A stretch of 20,000 bases of DNA, from assembly GCF_004010195.1 (NCBI RefSeq), contig NC_057760.1, forward strand, positions 3,911,622-3,931,621, in the 5' to 3' direction. Both the position numbers and the translations under genes were made by a program. This DNA comes from Chiloscyllium plagiosum. Lineage: Eukaryota. This document shows, piece by piece, positions 5,092 through 20,000 of the stretch. The notes beneath the pieces are model-generated. The model made no database searches, was not told the DNA's origin, and was given only the letters and a program-made list of their open reading frames with translations. Numbering within the stretch: position 1 is the stretch's first letter; every line of letters starts with the position of its first letter.

Positions 5092-6131
5092 TGTAAGGGA
5101 ATAAGACAAATCTGAGTTTTATGGAAAAATAATTTTTCAATTGTAAGGCAGTGATACCCCAGATTCCTGCCAGCTTTCAAATAACTACTTGGAAAATGAA
5201 GGACATCCCTACGTGACTCCCTGTCCTAACCTTACATATTCCTGCCTTCCAAACTGGCAATAGCCTCCCACCCAGTCCAAATATGGTCAGGTCAATTGCA
5301 AAGCCTCTATACCTCATCCGGCTGAGATGAGCAAAGTTAAGTAATTCATATTGGGATATTCCTTGAGGATACGTGGCTCAAAATTATATCAGTGTACTGT
5401 CAGGCAGAAGGAATAATGAGAGAATGGCAGAAAAGCTATTTACAACACAAGTTAAATTTCTCACAAACACTTTGTAAAAGATCAAGTACACAGATTATTG
5501 ACACGAGATTTTATACACGTGACGAGGGCAGCTTCAACCTCCTCTTTACACACATCAAATACCGACAAGCCTATTACTGCTTGCCAGGAACAATACACAT
5601 ACAATAGGCTCTAAACAAATTTTCAAATCAGATGCAGAGTATTGGCACTCATTTGTACCACAGCCTCACAGTTTAATTATTTACTTAGTAACTAAGTATA
5701 AATAGAACAGGAAACAAGCCTTACCATGAAATATAGTTGAAAATCTAAGTGCTCCCATAGCTAATTCTGTGCTGGGGTACAGTTTATATCTGGGGCAAAA
5801 ACTGCTACATTAACGTGGAATAGTTTAGTATTAAAGGATTTTTCTGTTCAATCTCCCACTGACCAAGGCAATTAGAATCTTTCTTCTCCCCAAATACTTC
5901 CTGCTCAAGAGGGATGTGGCAGTGTGGGGCTGATATTTCTTTTGGGATCTGTTTGCACAATGACTTACTGACAAGCAGCTTACTGATTTGCCATGGTTTT
6001 ATATGGGTGAGGAGATAGTTGCAGGGAAGTGAAGAAAGATATCGCAGAATCAATTGGCTTTAAGTTCATTGATGATGACCATTGCTTCAACAGTAAGGAG
6101 ATGAGTTGTTCATGTATTACATTGTTGTCTC

Positions 6132-6236
6132 GTGGATGTAGGTTTGCTTGCTGAGCTGGAGGGCTTGTTTTTCAGCTCAGTAAGCAAATTTACATCTAGA
6201 ACCTCAACCTGACTACAAATCTTCTCAAAGCTCGCT
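6132..6236 (+). mobile_element. Penelope-type terminal-repeat mini-insertion with 28-bp inverted repeat
   Basis: Exact 11-bp TSD attgttgtctc at 6121-6131 and 6237-6247. Inverted arms at 6133-6160 and 6171-6198. caaatttacatctagaac resembles caaacctacaccctaaac at the 3' end of the Penelope copy (about 13290-13307). Confidence 0.75.
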
Positions 6237-8413
6237 ATTGTTGTCTCATATTTGACGTTAAACCAAATCTTATGTACAGATCCAATTGCAAGCATTGATT
6301 CTTGGAGATATGGTGACAGCATAGCTTTTATAATGTGGCTTCATGACACAACTCGGAAGGCTGGTCATTCTCTCAAGTGTACTGACAGCATAGTCATCAG
6401 CAAACATCCTCTCACCTAGTAGCTGCTGTGATCCGTGTGGGATCCTTAAGCCTTTTCAGATTCCTGAATAGGGTATGTGCTATGTCACAATCTTTGTGTG
6501 TATACAAGAATATAGCTGAAGAGTACTTGGTAAACAGTACTGGAGCCATGAATGGTGCTAATCGTACCAGGAAAAGCATCTGATAAGATTCATTATTATG
6601 TATCACACTGACCATCATGGAATGAATAGACAATCAGATCAACTTTTCAGGACAGCTGTACGATAATTCAGCTTGGGCAACAAACACCTTTCAGAGATCC
6701 CCATCTAACAGTATTCTTGAATTTTATGCACTAAAGATTACACTGAATATTCCTTGATCAGCACAGAAGTTCTATTGCAATAACTGACAATGACCCAGAA
6801 AGAACCACCCCGTTCAACTCCTGAAAGGCAAGGCTGCAGCAGGAATTGAAATACAGTAGTATACTCAGTCATCTTTGGCCAAATACAGATTACACTTAGT
6901 CAGATATCTCCAGAAGAATAAGCGAACACATTGGTCAACAAGTCTTGAAGAACACCTGCAAGCCTCAAACTGCTGAAACTGCTTTTAATCTTTGGCAAAG
7001 TTCTATTTGTATGGGTCGAGGCCTGCCAGCTGTTTAATAGTTAATCTCTGCCATAGACTGTACCTCAGGTGACACTCTGATGTTATAACCCGCTAAACCA
7101 ACTTTGAGTTCTACTCAAATTTCTGACACAATTCCATTCATTAATTTGATAGCTTAGCATGCTTCCTGCAACACAGAATTCAAACTGTCCAAGGACACTG
7201 GAGGGTGAGATGGGGTGGTAGAGTGCATGACCCCAGCACCACCCACAGCAGCTTCTGTGTGCTGGCGAGTACAAGGATCAGGATTTATCCTTAGAAGTGG
7301 GAGGGGACATTGTAAAGAGATAAAATTTCAGCTTATGTTATCAGGATGCAAGCCCCAGGTAGCTTATGGTGAAGGGATGGGGATGGTGAAGCTTTGGGTA
7401 AGAGGATAACAGGAGAAATTATAGTACACGTTTCAACGGCATGATAAGAACAGAAAGAAGGTGGAGACACAATCTAGCAGAAGGGGGCAAACAGCCAATC
7501 AGGGCTATGGACAGGAAACTTGACGAATCACAATTTATACTCAATTAGAAGATCAGAGACATCAGGGTGTACATCACGCTATTTGGGAGGGGAAAATGGG
7601 ACTGTCAAAGTGCATATTCCAGGTGCCAGACTGATGAAATCCTTCTTAGATTGATAATTATCACAAAATGAGACTTATAGTAAGCAGTCCCTTCACCCTC
7701 TCCCATACCACACACAGCTTGATAGAGAATCCTACAAGAGGATGACTGGAGCAAATTGTGAGGTGGCTGGGTGGGGGAAAAAAGCAACTCCAATCATATG
7801 CAGTTAATGCACTTCTGTTACAGAAAGCAGTGGTGATGGTTAGGATTTCATCCTGCGCCATTAGGAGGAGGTTAATGGAGAAGACATTATGCTATTGTCA
7901 TTGTGGAGCAACAGAAAAGTCCACTTTTCCCATTCAGTACAACAAAAATTACAGCAAATAACACTCCTTACTTGTCCCATTTAAAACTGAACAGTTGCCA
8001 CAGCCAATTGAAATGCAGCTCCCATTGCAATGTCCTATTCAGCATTGGTTACACCATGTTTTAAATACTCCATAGAGCTCCCATTTCACTTTCCAAACAA
8101 GAAATCAGACAAGTATCATAATTACAATCCTTTGAAAGTTGAGATTTAGCAATTGTATCACCAGCAGAAGAGGACCTCACAGCAGACACAAAGACTGAGC
8201 TGCCTCATTGCTCCACTTCAGTGTGATTGGTGCTCTTCGGAACTCTACTTCCAAGAGTATGATATAAACCTCAAGCTTATCATGATCAAGAGAATCCTCA
8301 GCCATATATAGGTTACATTTAGAGCATGCAGTTCTTGAATCTAGTTCCAAGTTTTGGTCAGCATCTCCTCTTCCTCTTCCTGAAGGAAACAGCCCTTGTG
8401 ACGGTCTTGATTT

Positions 8414-8710
8414 TAGATTAGATTACTTAGTGTGGAAACAGGCCCCTCAGCCCAACAAGTCCACACCGACCCTCTGAGCAGCAACCCACCCAGACCCATT
8501 CCCCTACATTTACCCCTTCACCTAACATTATGGGCAATTTAACATGGCTAATTCACCTAACCTGCACATTTTTGGACTGTGGGAGGAAACCCACGCAGAC
8601 ACTGGGAGAATGTGCAAACCCCACACAGACAGTTGCCTGAGGCAGGAATTGAACCCGGGTCCCTAGCACTGTGAGGCAGCAGTGCTAACCACTGCGCCAC
8701 CGTGCTGCCC
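8414..8710 (-). mobile_element. HE1-type tRNA-derived SINE
   Basis: The reverse complement starts gggcagcacggtggcgcagtggttagcactgctgcctcacag, has B-box GGTTCAATTCC, and ends cctgtttccacactaagtaatctaatcta. Confidence 0.93.
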
Positions 8711-9177
8711 ACTATAGGCTTTTGTTTGAGATAGGCAACAATCTGTACACATGAACAAAGACAGCAAGTGGCAGCAAGATGATAATCACAACTGAGCCTC
8801 ATCCTGTGTCAGCTGATGAGGAGGGAATCATTACTGGAGAGCAGGACACTAAAGCTGCAATTAGGAGGAATAAAGGCATTTGGCCCAAATCAAACACTGG
8901 CTATATATACAGCTGGTACACTGATTCTCTATTAAAGTGGTAGACAGGTCTATTCTGGGTAATGCAGCAAACATATCACAGAAAGGCCATGTCCTGACTA
9001 CAAGTTGACTTGGCAAAGGAACCAAAATAGAAGTGAATCCAGATAAAAACAAAACTAGATGTATAAGACAGTTACAATTCTGCACTGCACAAACGTCAGA
9101 GCCAGATCAGAATTGTTCTATGCTATATTTGTAGACATTACAGTGGCACATCAGCATTCTAATGCAACTTTCAAACA

Positions 9178-9258
9178 ATATGGGACTAGATCAATTTAGG
9201 ATATCTTGTTGGCATAGACAAGTTAGACCGAAGGGTCTGTTTCTGTGCTGTACAACTT
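9178..9258 (+). mobile_element. Short CR1 3'-tail fragment
   Basis: ttggcatagacaagttagaccgaagggtctgtttctgtgctgtac matches the CR1 tail at 16643-16700 (-) and the HE1 3' ends. Confidence 0.7.
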
Positions 9259-9748
9259 GATGTTCGGCTGTTGCAAAGCTCAAACTACAGGGAGTAAAGT
9301 GAGAAGAGGTAGTATGAATGCTGGGACTTATGGAAGACTTGTAATACCTCAGCTTACAGTCATTCACAATCCAATTGAACCTAGATGAAAATCACTGAGG
9401 CTGACAGTTGAATCTTCTTCTCTTGCAAGAACCTAGATGTGATAATTACACTTGTGGCAGGGCCTTCAGGCTTTGCAATAATAGAATATGAGCAATCATT
9501 GGAGTTCTGCTGCAGAGTTAGTGAATATAATCCAGCCAAATGTGTTTCAAGTTTATCCTCAAGCCTGAAATGCTGAATAACAAAAGTGAACGACAAAGAA
9601 CTAGATGGACTGTAATGCCTCGTCTTTCAACGATGGAAGGAGTCAGGTGCAAATGCAGTAAGCAATTTGCTAAAGGCAATGGAGCAGCTTTCAGACTGTC
9701 GATTCTCAATCTGCTCTGGAAGTAAATTCACCAGATTATGAAATACTT

Positions 9749-9927
9749 TCAAAAACCGCAAGAACTGCAGATGCTGTAAATCAGAAACAAAAACAGAAGT
9801 TGCTGGAAAAGCTCAGCAGGTCTGGAAGCATTTGTGAAGATAAATCAGAGTTAACATTTCGGGTCCAGTGACCCTTCTTCAGAACCATCAGTTGCCAGAC
9901 TTGCTGACATTTCCCAGCAACTTCTGT
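9749..9927 (-). mobile_element. Non-autonomous Penelope-type mini-element with hammerhead motif and inverted duplication
   Basis: Exact 13-bp TSD ttatgaaatactt at 9736-9748 and 9928-9940. Arms 9791-9829 and 9891-9929 are 33/39 complementary. The body is homologous to the elements at 15698-15836 and 17413-17540 (gacctgctg..ttttccagca, cagcatctgcagt). Confidence 0.82.
9849..9886 (-). ncRNA. Minimal type I hammerhead ribozyme motif (stem III variant AUGU)
   Basis: Minus strand reads GGTT-CTGAAGA-A-GGGTC(ACTG)GACCC-GAAA-T-GTT-AACT. Core and 5-bp stem II are intact, stem I is GGUU/AACU, and the predicted cleavage triplet GUU is at 9855-9853. Confidence 0.6.
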
Positions 9928-10559
9928 TTATGAAATACTTATACCTGGCCATGTGAAGACTCCATTCAGGAAAATATATGCAGCATACCATGATGTACTA
10001 TATTATTAGATCAAGTAGTTAAAACAGTCCTCAGCAATTTCACCTCTAGCTTTAGATTGTGGCACAGTATAGTGACATTGAATGATAACAGAACAACTGG
10101 GCTTAAGTTCTCGAAAATGAAAGTCACTCTGAGTATCTACTGCCCAGGTCATAAGTCTAAAAACTGTTTGAAGATTCTTGCCCTGATAAACCGGTTATAC
10201 AGGAAATCCAAAATTAGAGCAAGTAAATCTGCAACAAATTCCGCATTCGGAATTGAACTGGAACCAGATCCTCTGTTATTTGCTGCAAATCCTAATTAGA
10301 AAACTAAATAAATACATTTTGTAGAGGTAAGGGCAGCAAGTTCCAAAAGCATCTCCAATGTAGTTGTAGTGTGAATTTTTCATGACCATGATTTAAAGAA
10401 AATGGTCAACAAGCAATAAGATAAACATAAACATATAAAAATAAAGTTATGCTGTATCAGTCTGTCTTGACTGCTGACGTCCCAGATTCAAGTGATCAGT
10501 TTACAAGTTTGATAATAAGTAAGAAGAAGAAGATGACAAAACTCGGAAGGTGATTTGTG

Positions 10560-10790
<231 letters not shown>

Positions 10791-11930
10791 TCAGCAATTT
10801 AGGGCGATGATAAGAGTGGAAGATAAGTATTAAAAGACCCACAACATTAGGAGATATAGTTCAAAAGGCCGGTGTTACATGAAGCATGACGTAACTCGAC
10901 TATGAGATCACCTGCACAACAATCTGATCTTGTTAAAGATGCTTGCAAAAGTAACTGATTCAAGGAATGAACTCATATCACAGTCACAGAACTGCAAATG
11001 AGTAAAACATCAAATGGAGAACAAGCAACTCCTACTAACACATCATTTTCGGGAGGGGGGGTCGCGGGAGGAATATCTGGACTTTGGGGAGGGGGCATGG
11101 TGGTGATTGGAAGGTTGAAATGTTGATTGAACTGAGCTATTCACTTTGCAGTTAGAATGCCCTCAGAAGCTTACAAATAAAAGGTGGTAGAATCAGAATT
11201 TATCTCTGTCAACTTCAAACAGTTTCAAACTGAAGATCTGACACTTATCAATAATTACGTTCAAACCTTGAGTTTACTATTTCCCAATTCTTAAGGAATA
11301 ATGTCTGGAAATCATTGGCTGTCTGAGAAGTAATGAATGTAAGACATGCAGTGTTACTCTCCTTACCAGAGAGATCATTGCATTCATTTCTGCAAAGAGT
11401 TGTAACGGGGAAGATAAGCGTTACAACTTATACAACAATAGCGCACCATGCAAAGCCATATTGCCAGCACTAATAAAGAACAGTTCAGAGTCTTTGACTG
11501 ACTCCACACAAAAGAGGGTTTTGAACTAGCATTTACACAGCCTTTGTTTCATCTCAGTTGAAGAATTGGTTGGAACAAATGGTTCCACATACCATGTTGT
11601 CCACGCACCATTAGAGAATAAATTGATAATATCCTCCGAAATTTGTTACAGATAGTACTTATAAGGACAGTTTTCTGAAACTGTTTCAGGTGTGTCCAAA
11701 GACTACAGTACTCAGCTCCTTTCAACAAAGGAAGCACCAAGCAGATGCTCGATGTTTACCTGAAGGACACAGCTCACCTGCACTCAGGAAATTTCCAAGT
11801 TCAATATCCTCTTATTCAAGCAATATCAGATGAAAGTGAAAACTTGGAAGCGTGGCAAATAGTGAGGATGAAATCAACTGAATAGCACCAGTCCAGAATT
11901 AGGTGAGCAGAACGGATGGGTAACTGGGAA

Positions 11931-12270
11931 CCATTCAATAGGATCATGGCTGATCTCATCTCAATTCAACTCCACTTTTCTGCCTGCTCCCCATAATCCT
12001 TCAACTCATTACTAATTAAGAATCTGTTTATCTCCTTCCTAAATTTACTCAATGTCCTAGCATCAACCACACTCTTGGGGAGTGAATTCACAGATTCATG
12101 ACCCTTTGAGAGAAACCATTTCTTCTCATCTGTGTTTGAAGTCTGCCTCCCTTTAGCCGAAAACTATGACCTCTCATTATAGGTTGTCCTGCAAGGGGGA
12201 ACATCCTTTGTGTCGATTTTATCAATCCCCCTTAGCATCTTCTATACCTCATTAGATCTCATCCTTCTAT
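11931..12270 (-). mobile_element. CR1 LINE 3'-end fragment
   Basis: ccattcaataggatcatggctgatct...gtgaattcacagattcatgaccctttgagagaa...cccttagcatcttctatacctcattagatctc is the reverse complement of a CR1 ORF2 C-terminus (DL.EV.KML.G.DK) and 3' UTR. Confidence 0.8.
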
Positions 12271-12763
12271 ATTGAAGAACAAGTATGCACATTTTTCAAT
12301 TTCTTTGCAAGGATATCACTGCTATTTCTGATCATTGTCTCTAGATACTGTTGCTATCTGCTTTGCTATATCTTGTTTGTGCTTTTACTTAGTTCTAGTT
12401 TGTTTTTAGGCACATTCAATGGCCATTATTTTTCTTCCTTAGTTTGTGCTCCAATGGCATTTTTAACCAAGTTGATTTTCTGACTCTTCTGTCATACCTT
12501 GAGTAAGAATCCAATCTTAGCAGCTGATCCACAAAGAGAAATCTGTCCCTTCAAGTCATCAGTCATTTCAGCGATCTTTCCTAAAATCCTGTATGTGCCT
12601 ACGTCTTATTGCCAACTACGTCCTTTCTTCACAAAGCCCCACACCTTTAATCAGCAACATCTTAAAATTAACCCTAAACAAGGAAACAGAAAATCATTTG
12701 CACCAATACCTTCAGCAAACCATGTCGAGAAAAATTCATGTCACATGCCAACAACAACTGAAC

Positions 12764-13304
12764 AACGGAATCCTAGTAGCACATAAACCCACCAACACAC
12801 TCAAACAAAAACTAACAAACTCAAAAAACCCAGTACAATCCATGAACAAAACCAATGTCATCTACAAAATTCCATGCAAGGACTGCCACAAACACTACAT
12901 AGGACAAACAGGAAGAAAGTTAGCCACCAGGATACAGGAACACCAGCTAGCCACAAAAAGACACGACCCTCTCTCCCTCGTAGCCCTACACACGGATGAA
13001 AAAAAACCCACCATTTCGACTGGGACAACACATCTATCCTGGGACAGGCTAAGCAAAGACATGCCAGAGAATTCCTAGAGGCCTGGCACTCCAACCACAC
13101 GCCATAAACAAACACATAGATCTAGATGCCATCTATCAACCCCTCAGAAAATGAACAGGAAATGACATCACCACAAACCCCAGGAACCCCATCCAAGATA
13201 TAAATACAAAGCAGGAGATAACAGCTTCGCTTCACTTGGAGGTCGCCACTGATGATGTTACCTAGCCAGGTAATGAAACGTCTGGATATCAAACCTACAC
13301 CCTA
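12764..13304 (+). mobile_element. Penelope-like retroelement, 5'-truncated (GIY-YIG endonuclease plus terminal repeat)
   Basis: Encodes NVIYKIPCKDCHKHYIGQTGRKLATRIQEH, then after frameshifts HHFDWDNTSILGQAKQRHAREFLEAWHS and AINKHIDLDAIYQPL (VIY/YIG, R, E, N motifs). Exact 11-bp TSD aacaactgaac at 12753-12763 and 13305-13315. Confidence 0.93.
13246..13285 (+). ncRNA. Minimal type I hammerhead ribozyme in the Penelope 3' repeat
   Basis: CCA-CTGATGA(13249-13255)-T-GTTACCT(AGCC)AGGTAAT-GAAA-C-GTC-TGG. Stem II is 7 bp, stem III is the palindrome ACGT, stem I is CCA/TGG, and cleavage is predicted after 13282. Confidence 0.78.
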
Positions 13305-14149
13305 AACAACTGAACTCTAAGGATGACAACTAACTTGCCTGCTTTAGTTGACAAACATGAGGATATTATTTCAAACAGAAAATGTTTATAGTGAATCAGG
13401 GTGTAGAGAACAATCAATATACATGGGGAGAACTACCTGCTTGTCCTGAGCTTTCCTAGCTAGGACAGCACTTTCTGGAGGGCTAGCAACTGCTTGCATG
13501 GATGCTACAAACTTCTCCCATTTCCACTCAGCCTTTGTAATCCTTTTGTAGGCATTTCCACCCCCTTAAAATAAACATCCTCTCGAATTTCTCTTTTACT
13601 ACTTGTCAGCTGTCTGTGTCTGCATTTATGCCACCTTCATCAGCGGAGTTAGACATCTTTCCATTCTCAAAATTCCCACCTCTGCAATTTCTCGAAGTCT
13701 CCAGATGGGACATGCTGTTAATATGCTTGAGTTAATCTGTAACTTTGGAGGTTATCACTGCAGCTTCCTTTATTTTAAGAACAGCACCTTCTCTCTGGCA
13801 GCTGTGGCCCTGTTTCCTCTGGCACTAACTCATAGGCATGGAGAACAGCAGTCTTTACTGCCACAGTCACCTGAGAGCTCCTCTGCAAGATAGGAGTACG
13901 TCTCCACCTCTATCCTCATGATACGCTAAAAGGAATACAGCAGCATTGTTTCAGACAACTGGCATTTATTTTCTAATGACACAAAGTACGTGCTCGCTCT
14001 CTCTCCTCACAAAATTTAGATATCAGACAAATATTATTTGCCAGAGACAAAGAACTATGGGGGTCACACATTATCGATGAAACAGAGACATATCATGCTA
14101 TAGCAAGTCACAGTGAGTTCAACTATGTTGAGTGTCAAGAGTGTAGGGC

Positions 14150-14912
14150 AAGGCTGCACAGTCTTTACTTTAATGCTTGAGTGTAATAGGTAAGACTGAT
14201 GAGTTAATGGCATGGATTAATGGCATGGGTAGAACTTAGGAATGTTAACGGCAGCTACTTTACTGCGAGTGAATTGTAGGCCCCCAAAGAGTCACTGGGG
14301 AGAAAGAGCAGCAAATATGTAGACAGTTCACAGAGGTGTGCAAGAGTAATCTCAGGTCATTATACTGGGGGATTTCAACTTTCCCAATATAAATTGGGAT
14401 AGTTATAATATAAAGGGTTTTGAGGGGACAAATTCCTTAAAACCTGTGCAGCGGAGCAATGTAGGGAGGGGTTTCAAAAAAAGAGCTCAGGAGAGTACAT
14501 GTCCAACTTGTACCCTTTCGAGGAAATTCTAGCAGCGCTAAGTTCAGAGAACCTTGGATATCGAAGACAATTCAGGACTGGATAAAGAGGAAGAGTAGGG
14601 CAGCTGTTTCCCTTGGTTGAGGGGTCAATCACGAGTGGGCATAGTTTAGGGTAAAGGGCAGGAGATTCAGAAGGGACTTGGGAAAAAATATTGCCACTCA
14701 GCAGGTAGTGGGAATCTACAATGTACTGCCTGGAAAGGTAGAGGAGGCCGGAAACAAAGCCTTTAAAAGATATTTGGATACCTCAAATATCATAACAATC
14801 AAGGATATGGGACAAGTGCAGGAAATTAGATTAACATACTTTTAGTAGTTATGTCACTACAGACTCAATGAGCCAAAGGGCCTTTTCTGCAGTGTATGAA
14901 TCTACAAATCTA
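14150..14912 (+). mobile_element. Degenerate, internally deleted CR1 LINE (endonuclease part joined to the 3' end)
   Basis: YFNA..V.GKTDEL.AWI, WVELRN, RPP and VIILGDFNFPNINWDS at about 14160-14450. From about 14600 comes the CR1 C-terminus (LFPLVEGSITSGHSL, WN.LP-like) and the tail ccaaagggccttttctgcagtgtatgaatcta. Confidence 0.8.
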
Positions 14913-15447
14913 TAAATTAATAAATATGTGGAGTGTAATCTTGGTCATCCTCAACTTTGCCATTCAATACATATACTACAAGCTTTTCTAATTCCAACTT
15001 GAACTCCCCCCTTTCTAATCTTCTCCTTTCTCTTTTGAATTCAAGTTTGTTCATTCTCTTTTGAATTATGGCTTTTTTTTCTAATCAAGTGTGGGTGCTT
15101 CCAGTTGAACACTCACAGAAACATTGTTTCCTTCCTCAAGCTTCAAGTGACAACCCAACGTTTGAAGTGTCTTCAGAAAGCTGAAGGTTCAGCATCCTTT
15201 CCAATTTAGGGTTGATTTAAAATTAAGTTCCAAAACCACAGATTCCATCTCAACATTGATGCAAAAAGGAAATGGACAAGTTTGGATCCTGACTAAATTT
15301 TTCACTTTAGGCAGTGCTACAATTTCTTTGGAACACTTGTTAGAGAACAAACATGCACGTGGATACAAAGAACTTCTCCGATTTCTTTTGCAGACTGCCA
15401 TGGGATCACTGACATCTAGAAGAAAGGGCAGATGGCACCTTGTTTTA

Positions 15448-15836
<389 letters not shown>

Positions 15837-15906
15837 CAGTGACAAATTACATCCCATTTCAGACAAACTAACAAGACAGTGCTCCTTACTTTGAAAGAAA
15901 GACAAA

Positions 15907-16232
15907 AGCACGGTGGCACAGTGGTTAGCACTGCTGCCTCGCAGCGCCAGAGACCCGGGTTCAATTCCCGACTCAGGCGACTGACTGTGTGGAGTTTGCA
16001 CGTTCTCCCCGTGTCTGCGTGGGTTTCCTCCGGGGGCTCCGGTTTCCTCCCACAGTCCAAAGATGTGCAAGTCAGGTGAATTGACCATGCTAAATTGCCC
16101 GTAGTATTAGGTAAAGGGGTAAATGTAGGGGTATGGGTGGGTTACGCTTCGGCGGGTCGGTGTGGACTTGTTGGGCCGAAGGGCCTGTTTCCACACTGTA
16201 AGTAATCTAATCTAATCTAATCTAATCTAATC
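15907..16232 (+). mobile_element. HE1-type tRNA-derived SINE, near full length and apparently young
   Basis: A-box TGGCACAGTGG, B-box GGTTCAATTCC, many retained CpGs, and a perfect (TAATC)6 tail at 16203-16232. Confidence 0.95.
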
Positions 16233-16550
16233 ACTAGCACATGAACAGTGCCTTTTGCAATCCTAGGATGTTCCAAATTGCTTTACAGTCAACAAGGTGC
16301 TTTTGAAATGTGGTCAGAGGTAACAGAGCAAACACAAACAGAAAGCCTTCACAGACAACAATGTGGCAATAATCAGATTATTTGCAGTGATGAGAATGGA
16401 GGGATAAATATGAGCTTGCTCGGCAAGGTTACCTCACTCATTTGTCAAATTAGTGCAATGGGAAAGTGGGAACCTGCTTGCTTTCCAAGGTCCTAGCCTG
16501 ATCGACAGTGTAGCATTTCCTCTGTGCTCAATTGAGTGTTAGCCTTAGTT
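16233..16550 (-). mobile_element. Old DeuSINE-like element (SacSINE1/AmnSINE1 superfamily), degenerate
   Basis: gacagtgtagcatttcctctgtgctcaattgagtgttagcctt resembles the reverse complement of the Deu-domain (aggctgacactccagtgcagtactgagggagtgctgcactgtc). ggatgttccaaattgctttacag resembles its L2-type tail. Assigned from recalled consensus. Confidence 0.55.
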
Positions 16551-16552
16551 TT

Positions 16553-16641
16553 ATTATTATTTCATGGGATGTCAGTGATGTTGGTTGGGCCAACATTTGT
16601 TTCCATCCTTACTTGCTCTTGGGAGAGTAACGGTGAGTCAA
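16553..16641 (-). mobile_element. 3' tail of an L2/CR1-like LINE, split by the CR1 insertion (continues at 17862-17922)
   Basis: The reverse complement aaatgttggcccaaccaacatcactgacatcccatgaaataataataaaa matches the tails at 2993-3044 and 18583-18619. Confidence 0.6.
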
Positions 16642-16642
16642 C

Positions 16643-17861
16643 ATAGAGTCATAAAGCATGGAAACAGACCTTCAGTCCAACTAGTCTATGCTGACCATGT
16701 TCCCACTCATCCCACTTGCCTTGCTTGGCCCATAACCCCTTCAAACCTTTCCTATTCATGAACTTATCCAAATGTCTTTTAAACATTATAACTGCACCTG
16801 CCACTTTCTCCGGCAGTTCATTCGACACATGAACCACACTGTACAAAAAAGCTGCCCGTCATATCCTTTTTAAATCTTTCTCTTTTCATCTTAAAAATAT
16901 GCCCCCTCGTTTTGAACTCCTACAGCCTATGGAAAAGATCCTTGTCATTCACCTTATCGTGATTTTATAAACCTCAAGAAAGTCACCCCTCAACCTCATA
17001 CACACCAGTGAAAGAAGTCTCAGCTTTTCCAGTCTATTTTTATATCTCAATCCTCCTATTCCTGGCATCATCCTGGCAAATCTTTTCTGAACCGTCTCCA
17101 CTTTGATAATATCCTTAATATAACAGGGCAACCAGAACTCCACATAACTCTGTACAACCTCAAAATTATGTTGCAATTCCTGTACCAAAGGTCTTAGCAA
17201 TGAGGGCAAGTGTGCTAAATGCCTTAAAATACGCTATCTACACATGATTCAAATTTCAAAGAATTATGTACCTGAACCGCTAAGTCTCTGTTCTACAACA
17301 CTACCCAGGACTCTTCCAGTAACTGTATAAGACATGTCCTTGTTTGTGTTACCAGAATGCAATACCTCACATTTATCCAAACTAAACTCCATCTGCTATT
17401 CGTCAGCCCATTCCTGATGAAGGGGTTATGCTTGAAACGTCAATTCTCCTGCTCCTTGGATGCTGCCTGGCCTCCTGTGCTTTTCCAGCATCACACTTTT
17501 CAAGTCTGATCTCCAGCATCTGCAGTCCTCATTTTTTCCTAGCCCATTGACCCAACTGATCAAGATCTATTTAGAACCTTAGATAACCTTCTTCACTGAC
17601 CACCATACCACCAATTTTGGCGTCATCCACAAATTTATTAACCATGCCTCCTATATTCTCATCCAAATCATTTCTATAAATGACAAAACAAAAGTAGACC
17701 CAGTAACAATCCCTGCAGAACACAGGCCTCCAGTCCAAAAAAAACCTTCAACCACCACCCTCTGTCTCCATAAAACCAATTCTGTATCCAATTGGCAAAC
17801 TCACCGAGTCCCATGTGATCTAACTTAAGTAATTAGTCTACAATGCAGAACCTTGCCAAAG
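16643..17861 (-). mobile_element. CR1 LINE 3' portion (RT C-terminal half plus 3' UTR), degenerate
   Basis: KFVDDAKIGG at about 17608-17636, FWLPCYIKDIIKVETVQKRFARMMPG...RLRGDFLEVYKI (ORF 16949-17209), NELPEKV...FKRHLDKFM, and the tail gaaggtctgtttccatgctttatgactctatg. Confidence 0.92.
17413..17540 (+). mobile_element. Non-autonomous Penelope-type mini-element with decayed hammerhead motif, nested in CR1
   Basis: 8-bp TSD agcccatt at 17405-17412 and 17541-17548 interrupts CR1 sequence. CTGATGA(17414-17420)-A-GGGG(TTAT)GCTT-GAAA-C-GTC, with a weakened stem II. Confidence 0.83.
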
Positions 17862-17934: not shown

Positions 17935-18620
17935 GCAGCAGTATGTACCATTTACAAGATCCATTGCAAAAATTCATGAAAGAGCCTTCGACAGCACCAT
18001 CCAAACCCATGACTACTACCATCCAGAAGGACAAGGGGAGCAGATAGATGGGACCATCACTCCCTACAAGTTCCCCTTTCAGCAATTCAGTATCGTGACT
18101 TGGAAACATATCATTGTTTCTTCACTGTTACTGTAACAAAATCCTGGAACTCCCTCCCTAGTGGCACTGTGGGTCTATGTACAGCAAATGGTGGTTCAAC
18201 ACAGCAGCTCATCACGACCTTTGCCATTACAACAGGGATTGCCAATCAATGGGTGGCACAGTGGTTCAGTGGTTAGCAGTGCTACCTCACAGTGCCCAGG
18301 GACTTGGGTTCGATTTCAGCCTCGGGCAACTGTCTGTGCAAACTCCACACATTCTTCCAATGTCTGAATGGGTTTCCTCCCACAGTCCAAAGATGTGCAG
18401 GTCAGGTGAACTGGCCACGCTAAATTTCCCATCAAGTTCAGGGATGTGTAGGTTAGGTGCACTTGTCAGGGGTAAATGTAAAGAATGGGGAATGCATTTG
18501 CGTGGGATACTGTTTAGAGTGTCAGTGTGGATTTGTTGGGCCAAAGGGCCTATTTTCACATTGCAGGGATTCTATATTCAAAAAATGCTGGTCCAGCCAA
18601 TGACGTCCACGTTCCATGAG
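17935..18620 (+). mobile_element. L2/CR1-like LINE 3' end, interrupted by an HE1 SINE
   Basis: gcagtatgtaccatttacaagat...ccttcgacagcaccatccaaaccc...aaaatcctggaactccctccct (WNSLP motif). The tail resumes after the SINE at 18583-18619. Confidence 0.72.
18253..18574 (+). mobile_element. HE1-type SINE, older copy
   Basis: gtggttcagtggttagcagtgctacctcacag, B-box GGTTCGATTTC, core gggtttcctcccacagtccaaagatgtgcaggtcagg, and a 3' end ggccaaagggcctattttcacattg. Confidence 0.88.
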
Positions 18621-19416: not shown

Positions 19417-19734
<318 letters not shown>

Positions 19735-19835: not shown

Positions 19836-20000
19836 GCATTCTGGGAAAGGTGGGACCTGTACAAGCAGGACGGGTTGCACCTGAACCAGAAGGGCACCAA
19901 TATCTTGGGAGGTAGGTTTGCTAGCACTCTTCGGGGGGGTTTAAACTAATTTGGCAGGGGGAGGGGATCCGGACTTGTAGTCCAGCAAGTAGGCTAGCTG
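19836..20000 (+). mobile_element. CR1 LINE starting within the ORF1 esterase (SGNH) C-terminus; continues beyond the window
   Basis: 19839-19949 encodes FWERWDLYKQDGLHLNQKGTNILGGRFASTLRGGLN*, with the DxxH (DGLH) motif of CR1 ORF1p esterase domains. Confidence 0.85.

Follow-up and report, generated by a model that had tools for sequence, protein, structure and literature searches.

How do five short insertions, four of them bearing the core of a hammerhead ribozyme, come to lie within some 11 kb of the genome of the shark Chiloscyllium plagiosum? The 20-kb stretch analysed here (NC_057760.1, positions 3,911,622 to 3,931,621; hereafter the window, numbered from its first letter) carries the inserts E1 (6132-6236), E2 (9749-9927), E3 (12764-13304), E4 (15698-15836) and E5 (17413-17540), which an initial annotation had described as one family of mini-retroelements accompanying a Penelope element. 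We propose, with a probability of roughly three in four, that two of them (E1 and E3) are 3' end pieces of a Penelope/Poseidon-type element, that one or two further Penelope-like elements (PLEs) likely supplied the remaining three as end pieces, and that all five were likely made by an element endonuclease (EN) and reverse transcriptase (RT) and are probably dead. Rather than one family, the window holds a Poseidon-type family (E1, E3) and two related short families, designated A (E4, E5) and B (E2).

That the five are separate insertions is read from their target-site duplications (TSDs), which the initial annotation had listed and which a scripted check found to be exact and maximal in every case: 11 bp around E1 (6121-6131/6237-6247), 13 bp around E2 (9736-9748/9928-9940), 11 bp around E3 (12753-12763/13305-13315), 15 bp around E4 (15683-15697/15837-15851) and 8 bp around E5 (17405-17412/17541-17548). 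How much do such repeats tell? Exact repeats of at least 11 bp, 60-700 bp apart, number 15 in the window versus a mean of 4.6 and a maximum of 12 in 30 first-order shuffles. Repeats of at least 8 bp stand at background (256 in the window versus 229 in the shuffles), so the duplication of E5 is uninformative by itself; its weight comes from the adjoining tail end, which is common to E4. With both borders fixed to +/-3 nt it receives a rough p of 1e-3, the true value being higher because the 5' border is not independently fixed.

Three of the five copies (E1, E2 and E4) are fold-backs whose arms differ by a tail of 35-44 nt, a feature absent from the initial annotation. E1, a fold-back stub of a Poseidon-type element end to which no single strand is assigned, consists of an inverted tail-less arm (6132-6175, minus strand) and a sense arm (~6173-6236, plus strand) with a tail of 38-40 nt, the length by which the inverted arm stops before the other. 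E2 lies on the minus strand; its arm from hammerhead to tail (~9890 to 9749, minus) starts ~4-8 nt before the core, and its inverted tail-less arm (~9891-9927, plus) stops 44 nt short of the end of the other. E4, also without a single strand, is composed of a 35-nt tail alone (15732 to 15698, minus), an 11-nt junction (15733-15743) and a tail-less, inverted hammerhead arm (15744-15836, plus) whose start precedes the core by 4 (or 15) nt; the short arm of E4 reproduces exactly the 35-nt tail present in E5. E5 itself is a direct plus-strand copy running from 1 nt before the core (4 nt if a possible microhomology is counted) to the end of a 36-nt tail, and the end of E3, on the plus strand, is tail-less. 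An adjacent inverted 5'-truncated copy, a one-ended tail of 30-40 bp, TSDs of 8-10 bp and microhomology joints have been described for insertions of EN-bearing PLEs (PMC3846280; PMC8557442; PMC8969392), and it is this published signature that we recognise, by sequence comparison, in the inverted truncated copy and one-ended tail of E1, E2 and E4. The earlier suggestion that the short copies are extreme truncations of Penelope stands for E1 and is likely for E2, E4 and E5, for which a PLE origin is suggested by the same inverted arm and tail. Rfam microRNA matches were also obtained on E1; they fall far below the gathering scores and are a product of the fold-back.

How might such copies arise? 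A GIY-YIG nuclease would make staggered cuts 8-15 bp apart, and reverse transcription would begin internally, at one of two RNA positions ~35-44 nt apart, the choice between them leaving ends with or without a tail. Synthesis would end after 35-540 nt, and in three cases a second cDNA, in inverted orientation, would be attached to the opposite side through a short microhomology. The copies would contain the hammerhead because it sits 90-125 nt from the element end, inside a pseudo-long terminal repeat (pseudo-LTR) that overlaps the predicted start of the open reading frame (ORF).

What ties E3 and E1 to a particular clade? E3 is a 5'-truncated copy comprising the linker, the GIY-YIG domain and, in its 3' end, a hammerhead. 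The claim that one insert encodes a GIY-YIG nuclease holds for the domain (PF01541), and not for an intact frame, which is broken by two frameshifts and one stop. Against Pfam PF01541 the first frame gives an E-value of 3.8e-4 and 21.1 bits, below the cut-off of 22.6, and E3 shares 90% identity with the C-terminal portion of a bamboo-shark RT-GIY-YIG protein, P0001 (17 matches from 28 candidates), its closest protein relatives being found in bamboo, zebra and epaulette sharks. In P0001 and P0002 an RVT_1 domain lies upstream of the GIY-YIG domain, and the nearest relatives are 82-90% identical to E3; the RT has been truncated away in the E3 copy itself, and the union of a GIY-YIG domain with a PLE-type RT in one ORF is seen for E3 through its own part and these relatives. 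No linker zinc finger was detected in E3 or in any of the 77 relatives with the GIY motif (134 proteins examined), and since its absence marks the Penelope/Poseidon clade (PMC8557442), the predicted product of E3 fits that clade.

E1, which has no hammerhead core, is connected with the same family by a different route. The relative P0003 continues through its hammerhead, its residues 370-385 matching 6172-6125 of the minus strand (E 0.002), and 39 of the 44 bases of the E1 inverted arm are codon-compatible with P0003 residues (0 of 2000 shuffles), so E1 represents the sequence behind the hammerhead. Does this end repeat also contain the ORF start? The core of E3 overlaps a copy of the predicted start, with ATGs at 13252 and 13255, and two peptides, one read from the core ATG into the E3 end and the other from the E1 tail, match the shark protein P0088 best at residues 18 and 46, which is the expected spacing. 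In P0031 only the first peptide scores highest there, and in P0045 neither does. In Anolis Poseidon, stem II is where the ORF starts, and two internal start sites of reverse transcription flank the tail (PMC11167929); the predicted end repeat of E3 and E1 fits such an arrangement, through a weak N-terminal match in 3 of 117 long relatives.

Some further observations touch on this family. Behind the core, the E3 end (13283-13304) falls ~20 nt short of the length suggested by E1 and P0003, possibly through a microhomology deletion or a subfamily difference. Two shark gene models named as MAP3K7 and ZSWIM7 isoforms (P0009 and P0013) have Penelope GIY-YIG sequence at their terminus; the family is thus exonised or mis-predicted in host genes. 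The stretch 19890-19937 weakly resembles the Poseidon-type end (blastn E 0.065, tblastn E 2.2), a match that may be due to chance or be part of an unrelated long interspersed element (LINE) fragment.

Are the remaining three copies of the same kind? Over 86-89 nt E4 and E5 show 85% similarity; E2, which aligns along its length, reaches 76% with E5 across 71 nt; and outside the core all three are dissimilar to E1 and E3. That short copies lack a tRNA head and an A-tail has been borne out: the scan for tRNA genes, which covered 5900-15900, found none, E5 lies outside that span and starts at its core, and the sense ends are not A-tails. The tRNA-like head and the A-rich or simple-repeat 3' tail of tRNA-derived short interspersed elements (SINEs) are accordingly missing from these copies within the span scanned. 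In both copies of family A one frame is open from the hammerhead through the tail (17410-17541 and 15744-15833), with an ATG in loop II. This open frame, which is possibly the start of the parent ORF, is the same as that of the end of the protein P0021 discussed below. Shark repeats like family A may sit behind Neptune-type ORFs.

Several observations weigh against the origin proposed. The parent RT/GIY-YIG ORF of families A and B was not found in protein, profile and prokaryotic-genome searches, which were indirect and weak. For family A, the protein search confirmed none of its single candidate, and the profile search gave four matches, three of them unrelated repetitive proteins and one real; the latter, P0021, is a hypothetical protein of Chiloscyllium punctatum that ends in family A sequence and is without a Pfam domain. 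The tail motif had three matches in metagenome contigs, all of only 21-33 nt and judged to be chance, and none in viral contigs; the core motif had none in prokaryotic genomes; and none of 15 candidates for P0001 in viral contigs was confirmed. The TSDs, moreover, are read from the sequence of the filled sites. The N-terminal match supporting the ORF start is weak, many of the long relatives possibly being without their N-terminus, and the best-scoring places in P0045, and partly in P0031, lie elsewhere. Finally, all three hammerhead-bearing stubs (E2, E4 and E5) start ~1-15 nt before the core, which is unexpected under random truncation.

What could fix these start points? A tentative idea, which we consider doubtful, is that the stubs, instead of being random truncations, represent the leader at the 5' end of Penelope RNA, copied by run-off ('strong-stop'-like) synthesis. 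The RT would have proceeded from the tail to the RNA 5' end, set either by transcription beginning shortly ahead of the hammerhead (E2, E4, E5) or by the ribozyme cut (inverted arm of E1). An internal promoter is known in Drosophila Penelope (PMC2377424). With reverse transcription initiated inside the RNA, close to where the ORF begins, a template that itself began within the pseudo-LTR would be expected to yield a short run-off product of stub size. The 5' end of the E1 inverted arm falls in a 3-nt microhomology (6173-6175) spanning the predicted hammerhead cut; this could fit a cleaved template, in one case, a hairpin stall or junction microhomology being the alternatives. Were the run-off idea true, shark genomes would record PLE RNA starts and hammerhead cleavage in vivo, and counts of end points over many copies would tell whether the hammerheads of PLEs cleave in vivo and what sets the template's 5' end.

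The same start points, together with the near-equal span of E2, E4 and E5, would also suit families A and B as non-autonomous elements, each with a master RNA of ~130 nt (hammerhead to tail), source loci of its own and a PLE protein acting in trans, that is, a SINE-like passenger without a tRNA head. Non-autonomous PLE derivatives do exist, in Chlamys (PMC8557442) and elsewhere (bioRxiv 10.64898/2026.07.22.740005), and no parent ORF turned up for either family. We nevertheless regard this as unlikely: the start points vary among copies, the junctions are copy-specific, the ORF-bearing family leaves equally short stubs (E1), and the failure to find a parent ORF comes from indirect and weak searches. 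Truncated ends of PLEs thus remain the preferred reading of the short copies.

If the short copies are PLE ends, what is the state of their ribozymes? Scanning both strands of the whole 20 kb for CUGANGA-N-(8-40)-GAAA-YGU-H returned exactly four motifs, all within inserts E2-E5, as had been announced in the initial annotation; 300 shuffled windows contained 0.04 motifs each, and 0.003 with a stem II of at least 3 bp. The core of E2 (9853-9882, minus) has a 5-bp stem II, U.G at 15.2-16.2, a GUU triplet and a 4-bp stem I. That of E3 (13249-13282, plus) has a 7-bp stem II closed by G.U and the palindrome ACGU, its predicted cut falling after 13282; that of E4 (15748-15775, plus) is the only one in which all core positions and G10.1-C11.1 are intact, with a predicted cut after 15775; and that of E5 (17414-17441, plus) has a decayed stem II (GGGG/GCTT) and no stem I. 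The two cuts had been placed correctly by the initial annotation, and its reading of minimal type I hammerheads holds for the four cores, as does its link to Penelope, shown for E3 and E1. The Rfam search it had recommended gave no hammerhead family among nine matches with E-values up to 10, so this check would miss these cores.

Decay of the CpG-type (C to T) affects conserved positions in three of the four cores: G.U replaces G10.1-C11.1 in E3 and E5, and U.G occurs in stem III of E2, each by C to T at a CpG, stem II of E5 having a G.G mismatch in addition. Of the four cores, two (E2 and E4) retain stems I and II when folded to the predicted energy minimum. Covariation in stem II, previously taken as a sign that the pairing is maintained, does not survive closer comparison, the three stems compared belonging to three different families and the changes within the only comparable pair (E4 versus E5) breaking pairs. 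The differing stems are, by their sequences, a motif kept across families (cf. PMC4209133), not the outcome of selection on these copies. In E4 an upstream AGGAGA can pair with UCUCCU, which could be an extended stem I or a by-product of the junction. All in all, the hammerheads in these single, decayed copies are probably carried along without cutting. Dimers of hammerheads were reportedly found to cleave by Lunse and colleagues in 2017. According to PMC4209133, a single minimal motif shows no cleavage in vitro and dimers cleave little; the Poseidon hammerhead was reported to cleave only with protein, cleavage was not needed for insertion in vitro and RNA ends at the hammerhead cut were not found (PMC11167929); and the function of PLE hammerheads has been called unclear (PMC8557442).

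Could the short copies instead be retrozyme monomers? Animal retrozymes are tandem hammerhead units derived from PLE pseudo-LTRs (PMC7229834; bioRxiv 10.64898/2026.07.22.740005), and monomers of this non-LTR kind would be released by cleavage at two hammerheads, closed into a circle and copied from it by reverse transcription. The type I hammerheads with palindromic stem III seen here would suit such an origin, as would the report of retrozymes in one chondrichthyan and of dispersed monomers (bioRxiv 10.64898/2026.07.22.740005). It is nonetheless very improbable, and the notion of retrozyme-like passengers is unsupported in the published sense. No tandem array of hammerhead units was found in the window, an additional search having covered 5900-15900; the whole core lies at the 5' end of the copies, whose start is not at the cut; E2, E4 and E5 extend from 1-15 nt ahead of the core to 60-105 nt past the cut, in place of a unit running from cut to cut; none of the five copies is permuted; and tail and inversion are marks of PLE integration.

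An MH2-domain gene on the minus strand, which we take to be SMAD4-like, contains some of the inserts and is followed by the others. Its last coding exon spans 10560-10771 (minus; MH2 E 7.9e-17) with the stop codon at 10562-10560, an internal exon spans 15530-15666 (minus; no Pfam match for the exon alone), and another lies near 19530-19700 (minus). E4 and E5 share one intron, E3 is in the last intron, and E2 and E1 follow the stop. Of the four cores, three run antisense to the gene and only that of E2 is sense. The tail end of E4 is 31 nt upstream of the exon acceptor at 15666 (15667-15698, minus), in the branch-point zone, and on the gene strand supplies CTCAC, a pyrimidine tract and extra AG dinucleotides; judged by these elements, it could alter splicing of the presumed SMAD4-like gene.

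Polyadenylation hexamers of the minus strand occur at 7033 (ATTAAA) and 5086 (AATAAA), E2 preceding the first of them. From these positions E2, with its sense hammerhead, may lie in a long 3' untranslated region (UTR), as perhaps does E1, also behind the stop codon. Has the host then put E2 to use, its ribozyme tuning the stability of the mRNA? The E2 core is on the gene strand, ~680 nt past the stop codon and ahead of the first hexamer, and stems I and II persist in its predicted fold. Set against this are a single minimal motif with a GUU triplet and U.G in stem III, the lack of cleavage in vitro by monomeric minimal hammerheads (PMC4209133) and an extent of the 3' UTR that is itself only inferred, and co-option of this kind seems to us most improbable.

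Other repeats populate the same neighbourhood. Four copies of a SINE-like repeat of ~300 bp occur at 1962-2267, 8429-8709, 15907-16232 and 18250-18579, two of them with (TAATC)n-type tails; we presume them to be the shark HE1 family. LINE reverse-transcriptase remnants, presumably of CR1 type, lie at 3-1624 (RVT_1 at 238-879) and 16649-17830, positions 1-78 being repeated at 17611-17688, so that E5 is inserted among LINE fragments.

How, then, do these inserts compare with known systems? With non-LTR retrozymes (PMC7229834; bioRxiv 10.64898/2026.07.22.740005) the copies share shortness, lack of coding capacity, a type I hammerhead and kinship to PLE pseudo-LTRs. The retrozymes, however, form tandem arrays of at least two units, mostly of 150-450 bp, and circular RNAs, whereas the copies in the window are single or head-to-head, with a tail and a TSD. 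The chondrichthyan families of the preprint, listed in its supplements, may cover those described here (bioRxiv 10.64898/2026.07.22.740005).

With the minimal hammerheads that Cervera and De la Pena described in metazoan PLEs in 2014 (PMC4209133), the cores agree in their boxes, in the extra base before stem II, in the palindromic 15.2-16.2, in G10.1-C11.1 (intact in two of the four) and in the occurrence of several families per genome, mostly as single dispersed motifs. The pattern CUGANGA-N-stem II-GAAA-palindrome-UH with a short stem I is present in all four, fully intact only in E4, and single dispersed minimal hammerheads are attributed to truncated PLEs (PMC4209133). Sharks are not named in the portions of that text considered here. 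Our literature search by titles and abstract openings retrieved no paper on hammerheads in shark PLEs.

A third comparison is with EN-bearing PLEs of the Penelope/Poseidon clade, such as Poseidon_Ac of Anolis (PMC11167929) and Penelope of Adineta (PMC3846280). Shared with these are a C-terminal GIY-YIG domain without a linker zinc finger; a hammerhead overlapping the ORF start (here the predicted one), with the cut 28-31 nt after the ATGs here and 26 nt in Anolis (PMC11167929); and an optional tail of 30-40 nt, an inverted truncated second copy, TSDs of ~8-15 bp and microhomology junctions (PMC11167929; PMC3846280). They differ in that the copies here measure only 105-541 bp, some TSDs are longer (13 and 15 bp), none of the copies in the window is full-length, and families A and B are tied to no ORF. 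The stub insertions of this locus are, in sum, an ordinary case of a kind already described, and their value is for annotation: short shark repeats that resemble SINEs or microRNA hairpins are ends of Penelope-like elements.

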